A DNA stretch of 48,553 nt from Atractiella rhizophila (lineage: Eukaryota). Positions 26,078 to 30,997 of the stretch are shown here, piece by piece. The stretch spans positions 1 to 48,553 of the forward strand of contig MU271535.1 of NCBI GenBank assembly GCA_021432655.1. The letters run 5' to 3'. Position 1 is the stretch's first letter, and the number at the start of each line of letters is the position of its first letter. The notes under the pieces were generated by a model that saw nothing but the letters and a program-made list of their open reading frames with translations, was not told the DNA's origin and ran no database searches. A program made the position numbers and the translations under genes.

Positions 26078-27600
26078 CTAATGCTTCGCCCGCTTCTTGC
26101 TTCTTGCTCGTGACATTGACATCCCAGCCTCCACTTCATCATCATTTCGATCTTTGTCGTCCTCGTCCTCCCAAATCTCCCCACCTTTTCTCTTCCTTCC
26201 TCTCTTGCCACCATGTCCCTCATTTCCTTTCTCTCTTAACTCCCTGCCTGCCTCCCGACTGGCCTCTTCAACCCTCTCACGCAACATCATCATTTCTTCC
26301 TTTTTGTCCGCCCCTTTCACGCCTGGCCATTCCTCCATCTTCAGTCCTATCACGCCTTCTATCCGTTGGAACACCTCCACATCGTATTGTGTAACGAGAG
26401 TGATGGACTTTCCTGACCGTCCAGCTCGTGCTGTTCGTCCCACCCGATGCACATAATCTTTAGAATTTGTAGGGAGCGAGTAATTGATGACATAGTCAAC
26501 GGAAGGGATGTCCAATCCACGAGCTGCGACGTCGGTACAGACGAGGATGTGCTTGTTCCCCTTGGCGGCTGCTGATTTGAACTTATTCAGGGCGGCTAGA
26601 CGTGAGGACTGGGAGAGCTGTCCATGTAACGGAATGGAGGGGAAGGAGAGGATCCGGAGGAGGATGGAGAGCCGTTGGGAGTCGGCAACCGTGCGTGTGA
26701 AGATAATTATCAGGTGGGATGTGAGAGAAGTGAGAAGGTAGAGGAGATGCAGGTCTTTGTGGTTCACGGGAGTGAGAATATAGTATTGTTGAAGGGTGGA
26801 CACCGTCGAATACCTGCCTCCTAATCAGATGTGCTTTCAAGCTTGAACCCACGGTTGTCACTTACTTTGATGATACTTCAACTTTGACAGGGCTTTGAAG
26901 AGAAGCTCGTTGAAGCTTGCCTACTTTTGAAGTCATAGTTGCAGAAAAGAGGTATGTATGCCTATCTCGGGGCAAGAGTTTCAAGATTTTATCCAACTCG
27001 GCACCAAAGTCAAGCTCGAGTAGTCGATCAGCTTCGTCGAGGACCTTTTCTGACATTTGAACCCATTTCTTTGTCGCGCAATAAAATACACACCAGATAT
27101 TTGAGTTGGTTAAGGGAGAAACCTTTGGTGTGCTCCAAATGATCGATCAGCCGTCCAGGTGTAGCAATAATGATATGCGGTTTCTTAGCCAGCATGATGG
27201 CTTGCTGGACCGTGTCCATACCTCCCACAATTGTGCACGTCCTAACTCCTGCGCCATCTCCAAGAGACTGAAATACCTGTCCAATTTGGTATGCGAGCTC
27301 TCTGGTCGGTGCGATCACTACGCCGTAGAAAGGCTTTGGGTCTTCGTTGGTAAGAAGAGACTGCAAGATTGGAAGGGCGAACGCCAGAGTTTTGCCTGAT
27401 CCCGTCTGAGCTAGTCCAATGATATCCTTCCCTTCGAGAGCAAGAGGCAGGACACGAGCTTGAATTGGCGTGGGCACTGTGAGCTCGAGCTTCGCGAGTG
27501 CAGTCTGCAGATGCTCGTGCAGTTCGTACGACGTGAAGGGTTGGACCTCCTCCGCTGTCGAGTCCTGAGCTTTAGAAGTTGAAGCTTTACTCGAAGCCAT
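26078..27600 (-). CDS. RRP3: DEAD-box RNA helicase Rrp3 (DDX47)
   Basis: Q motif [78 protein letters not shown]. Confidence 0.96.
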
Positions 27601-27721
27601 CGTTAACGCGGGAACAGCCAGAATAAATTTTTGGCAGCGAAAGTCTTTAGGGTTAGGTCCTGTTCCCACTTTTTCTTTCATTTCACCTCACTCACAACAG
27701 CAACGACGACGATTGACTATT

Positions 27722-30196
27722 ATGTGGAAGCGCAACACATCTCAGCAAACTGGCTCAAACGAATCCCCTCTCGGTGCCCCTCGTCGCTGGGGTAACGCCA
27801 ACTCCAACAGCGCCACACCGGAAATCAAGGACGAGAAAGTAGACTCCCATCGTGGCACGGAACGTGAAAGGGACAGGTCAGACAGAGACTACAGGGACAG
27901 AGACCGCGATAGGGATAGGGATAGGGATAGACACAGAGATAGCAGGGATAGGGATAGGGGAGACAGGGACCGCCACAGGGACAGGGATAGCCACAGGGAC
28001 AAGGACAGGGACAGGGACAGAGAACATCGAGATCGTGATAGGAGAGGAGACCGACACCACGAGTCTCCTCGCGATACGGAACGAGTGAAGAGAGATGATG
28101 ACCCAATGCCCACTGTCCACGAACTGCCTCCGCCACCTGAACCAAATATGCAGCCTGGGGAGAAGAGGAGAAAGAGTAGATGGGGTGATTCAAAGCAAGG
28201 AGCAGGATCAATCGGCCCAACAGCTATTTTGAGCACAGCGGAAGCTATTGGGGAGACTCAGTTGGAGACATATGCTGGTGAGCTCTTCACGTCAAGGAGA
28301 ACAAATGGGTTTGGCGCTTTAAATTTCTTTTGTCTACGCGTCGCACAAACTTAAAGCTTTGAGTGTGAAAATCACAGACTTATGTGACGCCAAATGCGTT
28401 TGTAACAGCTAACTACTGATGTATTGGCTAACCATGCAAGAAAGCTGACATAGAGCGATGTCCTGTCTCTCGAGCTGTATTTTACTACGGTGCTGGTGGT
28501 AAGCGCCAATTGCTTCTTGCTTACCAGCACTGACGGTGTTGGACGCAGGAGTGTTTTGCTTTGTCTTGGTGAAACGTATTGGCGGATCGATGGTGTACAC
28601 TGTACCTGTCCTCCGAATTCTGCAAAATGCATTTCTTTTCAATCACATCTTGTACCAGCCGCATTTGCACTATCTCCAGGGCCATTGACTAACTGACTGG
28701 ACACTGACGCTGTTGCCTAGCCTCTGTACGTTTGGAAGAGATCTCGCGGATGTTACGAAGTGGCAACTACATTCCCCCTCCTCATCAGCGATCTCCTTCT
28801 CCTCCACCTACATATGATGGCCAAGGTCGGAGGACCAACATTCGCGAGGTTCGCTACCGTAAGCTTGACCTTTTCCTTTACCCTCACTTGCTTACACGCC
28901 GATGGAACCTAGGCAAGAAGCTCGAAGACGAAGCCATGCGCTTGGTGGACACTGCCATGAGAAAAGATCCTCAGTACAAGCCTCCTCCTGAGTTTATGCA
29001 AGCTCGTAAGAACGCCTGGGGCGGACGGGCTCAAGACAAGGTTTACATTCCTGTCAAGGAGTTTCCAGAAATCAATTTCTTCGGGTTCGTCACATTCTGT
29101 CTCCTTGGAAATCAGGTACTGAGCGCACATCCGCAGATTGTTGGTTGGGCCGAGAGGGCATTCGTTGAAGAATATGGAACGGCAGAGCGGCGCGAAGATC
29201 AGCATACGAGGAAAGGGGAGTGTGAAGGAAGGAAAGCAGCGTCCATTCGGGAACTTTCAAGACGACGAGGATGAAGATTTGCATTGTCTCATCACAGGGG
29301 ATTCCATGGATAAAGTGGAGGCTTGTGTCGCTCTAATTAACAAGGTCATAGAAACAGTGCGTGCTTCCCTTGTCTCGCGGCAAAGGCTCATGTTTCTAAT
29401 TAGGCGGCGAGTACGCCTGAAGGGGAGAACGATCACAAACGCAATCAGTTGAGAGAATTGGCGTTGCTAAACGGAACCTTGAGAGATGACGAGAACCAAG
29501 TTTGCCAGAATTGCGGAAATATTGGGCATAGAAAGTATGACTGCCCTGAGACCAAGGTCAGTCCCTAGATTTTCATTGCACCGTAGTTGAATTGATTGCC
29601 CTGTTTGTTAGAATTTTACTGCTGGCATCATTTGTCGCGTCTGTGGTGGAGCAGGACACATGGCTCGGTGTGTTGTCTGTTTTGCAGTTTGAGTGACCCC
29701 TGACTTTGTCTTAGTGATTGCACACAACGTCGTGGCCAGACCCAAGGCTATTCTGCTCCAATGGCCGCGCAGCCCACCCAATTCGACAGTGAATATGCAT
29801 CCCTCATGGCAGAACTAGGAGAAACAAGCCATGGTCCATCGGCACAAGTAGACGCCTACGGACAACCAGCTCCCCCTCAACCTCAGGAGAGTGGAATCGG
29901 ACCAAATGGAGAAAAGATTCCTCCGTGGAGAATTCCCAGTAACTGGTTAGTCAGTTCCCTGATTTGGAACAATTTGAAGGAACACATAACAGGCAATCCA
30001 ACAATACCCAGACTGGCGGAGGCACTGGCTATGGGCAACGAAACAATTATGCCATCCCTGGAGGATATACCTATAACAGCTACGGAGCACCAGTCGCTTC
30101 GTCGAGTGGAAGTGGGTACAATTGTAAGCTCGTCTAACGCTTCAGGTTTTACGCACTCAGTACGGCACAGATTATCATGTCCCCCCAACGATGTAA
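27722..30196 (+). CDS. MSL5: Branchpoint-binding protein BBP/SF1
   Basis: [36 protein letters not shown]2 ([56 protein letters not shown]); two zinc knuckles ([25 protein letters not shown]); [16 protein letters not shown]. 3' end approximate. Confidence 0.96.
27860..28050 (+). repeat. Arg-Asp dipeptide repeat (gatagg/gacagg hexamers) in the BBP N-terminus
   Basis: Runs of gatagg/gacagg encoding RDRDRD...; explains the spurious low-complexity ORFs in other frames. Confidence 0.9.
28278..28720 (+). promoter_or_regulatory. Long BBP intron with branchpoint-motif clusters and a hairpin-masked cryptic 5' splice site (candidate autoregulatory element)
   Basis: GTGAGC donor at 28278 and TAG acceptor at 28720 restore [17 protein letters not shown] at 28409, 28416, 28428, 28445, 28530, 28689, 28693, 28704. 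Hairpin 28488-28532 covers GTAAGC at 28499. Confidence 0.6.
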
Positions 30197-30997
30197 ACAT
30201 TATTCCGCACCTCCAAAACGCGCACCTGTTGGCGAACGTCGGCCCAGGAAAAGTTGGAGCATGAAACTAACTTTTTTGGTGGTGCTTATGTCAACTATTA
30301 ACATTACCATACCTATGAAAGTTATGTAATACATTCGTTCTTTGGGTTTCAAGCAGAAAGACAATGCTAGAGTTGATATTACAGGTATAAAGTGGATGGT
30401 GACCATGTAATGCCATGGTGAAAGCATAACTAGTCAACACTCACTCAAAGCTGAAGAAGAGAACCTGGTCATCTACACTTACCGTTCATTCTGATAGATA
30501 ACATTTGTTGTCTAGTAGAGCTGCCTTTGGAGTAAAGGGGAACAGGTAGCTTGGTACTAGTACTAATGCCAGCCCTTTCTTGCACACGTATTGCAGACTC
30601 GAATACATAAACTTTATTCCCTATTAGGCATTTCTGTCAATCAAGTGTTTTAATCTCAACGACACAGTCCAAAAATTTCATCAGCTCGTGCACGTATCTT
30701 CGTGTGTTCTTCCCCATCTATCTGAGCAGCTTGGGTGCACAGTGCTAGTAGCCCCGACTGCTGTGAAATATTCAATTCCAAGGTCTGGAATGTTGAATCC
30801 TACCTTGGAACGATTAGAAAGCAACATTCATCGGGGAGAAAATTTTCGGACAATAATGGGTATCTTTTTCGACTACGAAACTGAAGGAAATGCGAGAAAA
30901 GGAGAGTACATATATATCCAAAAACAACTTGGAAATAACGAAGGAAGCGCCAACAGATGTAGAAATCATAAAGGTTCATAGTCCATGTCGTCAACTA

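Follow-up and report, generated by a model that had tools for sequence, protein, structure and literature searches.

A probable nested mini-intron within the long, often retained first intron of the branchpoint-binding protein gene of Atractiella rhizophila

The window analyzed here is a stretch of 48,553 nucleotides from Atractiella rhizophila (assembly GCA_021432655.1, contig MU271535.1, positions 1 to 48,553 of the forward strand), which on its plus strand carries the gene for SF1/BBP, the fungal branchpoint-binding protein. An initial annotation, made from the letters of the window, had proposed that the long first intron of this gene contains a cassette exon, the inclusion of which would be gated by an RNA hairpin that buries a strong 5′ splice site (donor). 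The RNA contigs examined here point in another direction, and instead of a cassette exon gated by a hairpin, the element is probably a small intron of 50 nt, nested in a long intron that is often retained. Two RNA outcomes were observed. The entire 443-nt intron can be removed as a unit by joining position 28277 to position 28721, which gives the productive mRNA. Alternatively, the inner 50-nt intron alone is removed and the rest of the long intron is kept. The coordinates of all features are compiled in Table 1.

The identity of the host gene follows from Pfam matches of the separate exon translations around the intron. The SF1 helix-hairpin domain (SF1-HH, PF16275) was matched by exon 2 with an E-value of 1.1e-14 and by exon 3 with an E-value of 0.00016, and further downstream a KH-I domain of the KHDC4/BBP-like type (PF22675, E 1.5e-16) and a CCHC zinc knuckle (zf-CCHC, PF00098, E 2.4e-06) were found. 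The succession of SF1-HH, BBP-type KH domain and CCHC knuckle is the order that marks a member of the SF1/BBP family. The translation of exon 1 had no Pfam match; it has an N-terminus rich in DR and RD dipeptides and a KRRKSRW-type motif, and RNA contigs extend over this exon from 27707 to 28277. Exon 1 ends in phase 1.

The RNA evidence was drawn from public sequencing runs. Twenty-four runs are listed with at least part of the stretch, six of which are recorded as RNA, and the contigs of runs X1, X2, X3 and X20 were aligned to positions 27500-30300. These are assembled contigs from small runs, and they show the presence of an RNA form, not its proportion, the order of splicing events or rare forms. 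Downstream of the long intron, seven introns of 47-55 nt are seen as GT..AG joints, each in two to four of the four runs, which shows that the contigs derive from processed RNA. The outer joint 28277→28721 is present in one contig of X1 (side 60) and in one contig of X2 (side 29). In agreement with this joint, a loose contig end at 28277 in X3 is followed by the 14 letters that open exon 2.

The inner joint was found in X2, in one contig (side 60) that extends without interruption from 28248 (exon 1) to 28497. The joint as aligned runs from 28497 to 28548; when shifted by one position it reads 28498→28549, skips 50 nt and has GT..AG ends. The corresponding contig of X20, with a length of 1315 letters and a depth of 408, aligns at 28223-28499, then has 17 letters of its own, and then aligns at 28568-28858. 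Of these 17 inserted letters, 16 match positions 28550-28566, and positions 28499 and 28549 are both G. We therefore re-read the X20 alignment as the same 28498→28549 joint with a small strain difference. This contig, with its start in exon 1, contains five splice junctions further downstream; all downstream introns are spliced in it, and the partly spliced form is the only one that was assembled from X20. Accordingly, RNA junctions are at hand for the outer intron (X1 and X2) as well as for the inner one (X2, and X20 by re-reading). In neither X2 nor X20 does any contig cover 28500-28548, while intron sequence on both sides is covered. The depths of the bin are consistent with this gap: 2.62 in X2 and 260.7 in X20 amount to 58/94 and 60/94 of the respective single-contig depths, as is the case for contigs that stop at 28497 and 28499. 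No contig covers the interior of the intron in X1 or X3, which speaks neither for nor against retention in these two runs. The contigs of X2 and X20 share intron variants relative to the window, at 28613, 28660 and other positions, and the two runs thus belong to one lineage.

The inner intron has the features of an ordinary intron of this gene. Its donor, GTAAGC, is the same as the donors of introns 2 and 8, and its 50 nt fit the range of 47-55 nt seen in the other seven introns. As judged from the letters, the CTGAC motif at 28530-28534 is likely to be its branch site. RNA from which only the inner intron has been spliced keeps 393 nt of intron 1. Codon 211, which lies 25 codons into the intron, is a stop in both retained forms, and partly spliced RNAs consequently cannot encode the RNA-binding part of the protein with its KH domain and zinc knuckle.

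The hairpin of the initial annotation is borne out by the letters, both in the coordinates of its arms (28488-28504 and 28519-28532) and in its 14 pairs with a 3-nt bulge; one of the pairs is G-U, and the GTAAGC donor starts at 28499. The fold of 28480-28540 has a predicted energy of -25.3 kcal/mol, compared with a mean of -14.73 (sd 2.75) for shuffled sequences (z -3.84), and none of 200 shuffles was as stable. In a 600-nt context, the pairs of the main stem have probabilities of 0.96-1.0. When both strands of the window were scanned in 61-nt windows (step 7), 10 of 13,856 reached -25.3 kcal/mol or lower, at about eight distinct places; the best scan window over the hairpin itself had -24.4 kcal/mol. 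The hairpin is therefore in the top tenth of a percent of the window, and it is not unique. At the level of whole introns, the inner intron had a z of -2.80 (7 of 500 mononucleotide shuffles were as stable), as opposed to -0.90 to +1.38 in the other seven short introns. By this predicted-fold measure it is the sole structured intron among the eight short introns of the gene that are seen spliced in the RNA contigs. In silico, the stem contains the donor, which is the architecture of a hairpin-sequestered 5′ splice site. The notion of a buried strong donor thus holds in so far as a genuine donor lies within a predicted stable hairpin, but the donor is not silent: it is joined to 28549 in two of the four runs. 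Its use in RNA means that the hairpin does not keep it silent, and the lack of any contig over the 50-nt piece, with both flanks covered, argues against strong sequestration of the donor at steady state. The 3′ arm is missing from these contigs, as it is removed together with the inner intron.

A second possible partner of the hairpin's 3′ arm is the outer 5′ splice site, to which it is complementary as well. Positions 28273-28283 and 28519-28529 form an 11-nt inverted repeat with 91% complementarity and one G-U pair, and the predicted duplex has -20.2 kcal/mol. The local hairpin, with -24.2 kcal/mol as a duplex, is the more stable of the two and dominates the ensemble, so that the pairing of the 3′ arm with the outer 5′ splice site has a probability of about zero while the local hairpin can form. 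As a separate observation, the minimum-energy fold of 28258-28740 pairs 28258-28265 of exon 1 with about 28689-28696, in the outer branch-motif cluster, which would join the ends of the long intron; this is a single long-range prediction of low reliability.

Fungal introns are recognized across the intron rather than across the exon. Under the nested-intron reading, the inner short intron would be recognized efficiently, like the other 47-55-nt introns of the gene, while removal of the long outer intron would be slow or regulated. RNA in the partly spliced form would then accumulate, either as a long-lived intermediate or as an unproductive product, in which case a splicing-factor gene would be subject to regulated retention. 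Through the predicted hairpin, the inner donor would be linked to the sequence that immediately precedes the inner branch site; conceivably, the hairpin may slow the use of this donor or help to choose between the two outcomes, or its presence may be incidental. Several points weigh against this interpretation. Neither X1 nor X3 shows a retained form, and the two runs that do so represent one lineage, in which a genomic deletion of 50 bp common to both would formally account for the gap, an explanation that is unlikely given the exact intron-like features. The X20 junction is a re-reading of a row that was listed as 28499→28568 with 17 letters between, and proportions, the order of events and rare forms lie outside what contigs can tell. 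One would expect a stem of -25 kcal/mol over the donor to be an obstacle to U1, and how this is overcome is not explained by the contigs. Regulation of the retention, decay, export or translation of the partly spliced RNA may occur; these are possibilities beyond the contig data.

The alternative that survives best is an obligatory two-step removal, in which the inner intron is always spliced first and the shortened outer intron second, such that the partly spliced RNAs would be mere intermediates on the way to productive mRNA. This would fit with the fact that no contig keeps the inner intron while some keep the rest, and nested "intronic introns" are known from a fungal transcriptome, with 141 reported for Verticillium dahliae (PMC5294800). 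However, the partly spliced form is the sole assembled form in X20, at a depth of 408 and with all downstream junctions on one contig, which would be unusual for a short-lived intermediate. Moreover, the outer splice sites, both intact, do not depend on a prior step, and the order of events is not visible in contigs. We regard an obligatory order as possible but rather unlikely.

A structure-based switch would make fuller use of the hairpin. When the hairpin is formed, the inner donor and branch region would be masked and the whole intron removed; when it is opened, for example by BBP or U1 on its arms, the inner intron would be spliced and the rest retained, which would constitute negative feedback on BBP. 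The stability and high pair probability of the stem are in line with this model, as is the position of the inner intron as the only structured one of eight. The 3′ arm abuts the inner CTGAC, besides its complementarity to the authentic 5′ splice site, and both outcomes of the switch exist as RNA. In addition, the 443-nt intron contains seven branch-site-type CTRAC motifs (at 28409, 28428, 28445, 28530, 28689, 28693 and 28704), versus 76 on the whole 48,553-base plus strand (1.57 per kb), which is about a 10-fold higher density. Yet the outer sites stay intact after inner splicing, and later splicing of the outer intron may still follow. Similarly strong hairpins occur at about eight other places in the window, and the stem invoked by the model is a predicted one. 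Distant relatives have a short, plain intron at this position, and the switch would consequently be young. On balance, we consider such a switch unlikely. An extended version, for which our expectations are lower still, is that the BBP gene senses its own product by means of the seven branch motifs and the hairpin-masked nested intron: abundant BBP (or U1) would open the hairpin, leading to nested splicing, retention and a truncated frame. The element would then be an autoregulatory, structure-gated "decoy intron", and, if true, the intron-definition counterpart of the decoy exons of mammals.

The cassette exon of the initial annotation, spanning 28454-28498 or 28409-28498, would be included when the hairpin is open, with 28498 joined to 28721. 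Its frames are as had been described. The TAG and CAG acceptors end at 28453 and 28408, respectively; in the joined-frame translation the 45-nt version is in frame and free of stops, while the 90-nt version holds an in-frame TGA as the fourth codon after the exon 1 junction, which is codon 189 of the joined frame. The donor is functional, and CTRAC motifs lie upstream of the proposed acceptors. Nevertheless, the joints that would define either a cassette or a poison exon (28277→28409, 28277→28454 and 28498→28721, the last being the junction that the initial annotation had singled out) were seen in none of the contigs of the four runs, although contigs can miss rare forms. Instead, where the donor is used, the contigs run on from exon 1 without a break (28248-28497 in X2 and 28223-28499 in X20) and are joined to 28549. 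The spacing ahead of the proposed TAG acceptor also speaks against this model: the A of the CTGAC at 28445 is at a distance of only 5 nt from the AG of the TAG at 28453, and the CTAAC at 28428 is separated from that TAG by two further AGs (28439-40 and 28443-44). We therefore consider the cassette exon very improbable. Least credible of all is the view that the 50-nt gap reflects a genomic indel polymorphism between strains: one ancestral indel could explain both X2 and X20, which share several intron variants, but a random 50-bp indel would rarely combine exact GT..AG ends, a donor identical to that of two other introns, a CTGAC 15 nt from the AG and an intron-range length.

With regard to the origin of the long intron, a scan of metagenomes gave 148 relatives, 80 of which were retained for analysis; all are distant, the best having about 73% amino-acid identity in exon 2. 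Nine of the relatives have a GT..AG intron of 59-71 nt at the same phase-1 position, with no or one branch-type motif and a sequence unrelated to that of the long intron. This indicates that the 443-nt form is a lineage-specific expansion of an old short intron. In 18 other metagenome loci the exon pieces are adjacent without an intron, and some of these loci may be transcript-derived. A blastn comparison of the intron with the metagenome relative loci gave one 20-nt chance match only. As to an origin from a transposon or repeat, the intron is not copied elsewhere in the window, either in whole or in part, and the longest match there was 13 nt. We also considered that the long intron might contain a decayed copy of exon 2 plus intron 2, or that the inner intron might be a duplicate of the outer one, and rejected both ideas as unsupported: the best local alignment score was 26, against a mean of 22 and a maximum of 36 for shuffles, and no diagonal had more than 30 matches in 60, which gives no support to a wider duplication. 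On a smaller scale, the inner and outer branch-site-to-acceptor regions (28528-28541 and 28702-28715) share 13 of 14 letters, and the inner and outer donor regions have an 8-letter run in common.

The feature belongs to known kinds, namely nested introns and retained introns in splicing-factor genes. Like the fungal intronic introns (PMC5294800), it has both splice sites within a longer intron and changes the coding potential of the isoform. It differs from the V. dahliae cases in that the host gene is that of the branch-site-binding protein itself, a predicted stable hairpin contains the donor, and the host intron is about 7 times the length seen in distant relatives. Stwintrons of filamentous fungi consist of two nested U2-type introns, and some of their families have inverted repeats that are predicted as hairpins (PMC8469720). 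By definition, the inner intron of a stwintron splits a splice signal of the outer intron, be it donor, branch site or acceptor, and the outer site forms only after the first excision. In the BBP gene, by contrast, the outer donor GTGAGC at 28278 and the outer acceptor TAG at 28720 are intact, at 221 nt and 172 nt from the inner intron, and the inner junction creates no GT donor of the [D1,2] type, since the inner acceptor is followed by a G instead of a T.

The nearest functional analog is found in the decoy exons within retained introns of SF3B1, SNRNP70 and OGT, which have been proposed to engage the splicing machinery and to compete with removal of the whole intron (PMC7373989). In both situations internal splice sites lie deep in the retained intron of a splicing-factor gene. 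Decoy exons, however, reside in mammalian introns of more than 1 kb and present an acceptor followed by a donor, whereas here a donor is followed by an acceptor, forming an intron that is actually spliced. As with the detained and retained introns of splicing regulators (PMC4281565, PMC4379411), a splicing-factor gene gives rise to a premature-stop isoform, which is known here as RNA contigs only. Structures near splice sites also have precedents. In the Neurospora TPP riboswitch, base pairing near the 5′ splice site of a large fungal intron alters splice-site use (PMC3597705). The BBP intron differs in having no aptamer or known RNA family: an Rfam scan of 27000-30500 gave two chance-level matches (E 0.61 and 0.89), neither of them in the intron. 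Stems between donor and branch point, termed "zipper stems", are common in yeast (PMC12350175); these have a linker of 42-85 nt and leave the sites free, whereas the stem described here includes the donor itself and spans about 45 nt. In the open-access literature we found nothing specific on autoregulation of SF1/BBP through its own intron, and no decoy-type mechanism in intron-defined fungal splicing turned up there.

The contigs of two runs thus show that an essential splicing-factor gene of a fungus yields, besides the productive mRNA, an RNA that loses only a nested mini-intron and has its frame cut short. If the retention is regulated, this would be a compact fungal case in which a splicing factor uses internal splice sites to control its own output, and its significance would rise if the stem or the branch-motif cluster governs the choice between the two outcomes. 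For annotation, the 443-nt intron is more than a simple intron, and the cassette exon should be left out.

Table 1. Features in and around intron 1 of the BBP gene (positions are those of the window).
Feature	Positions	Strand	Details
Exon 1, coding part of BBP/SF1	27722..28277	+	185 codons + 1 base; ATG 27722 from open reading frame (ORF) listing
Outer 5′ splice-site region, complementary to hairpin 3′ arm	28273..28283	+	Inverted repeat
Outer long intron 1, GTGAGC...TAG, phase 1	28278..28720	+	443 nt; RNA joints
First in-frame stop (TAA) when 5′ part of intron 1 is retained	28352..28354	+	ORF 27569..28354
Upstream cluster of three CTRAC (28409, 28428, 28445)	28409..28449	+	Motif scan
Predicted hairpin, 5′ arm	28488..28504	+	Holds inner donor; exon side to 28498, GTAAGC 28499-28504
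Probable nested inner intron, GTAAGC...CAG	28499..28548	+	50 nt; X2 joint, X20 by re-reading; acceptor CAG 28546-28548
Predicted hairpin, 3′ arm	28519..28532	+	Within inner intron; abuts/overlaps inner branch-site motif
CTGAC, likely inner branch site	28530..28534	+	Motif position; A at 28533, 15 nt upstream of G28548
Three CTRAC (28689, 28693, 28704) before outer acceptor	28689..28708	+	Motif scan
Exon 2, SF1 helix-hairpin domain	28721..28858	+	Pfam SF1-HH and RNA joints

Some further observations concern other parts of the locus. Exon 1 encodes a long, low-complexity stretch rich in Asp and Arg at 27860-28040. In X20, the summed contig depth over this exon is in the thousands, versus 408 downstream, probably through the adding together of many repeat-derived contigs from the DR repeats. 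Intron 2 (28859-28912, 54 nt) is in frame and free of stops, and its retention would add 18 residues (ORF 28708..29274); in the predicted fold, a complementary hexamer located 30 nt downstream pairs with the donor of this intron. On the minus strand, a DEAD-box-helicase-like gene diverges from the BBP gene (region 26078-27722). The likely start codons of the two genes are about 120 nt apart, which suggests a shared, compact promoter region.

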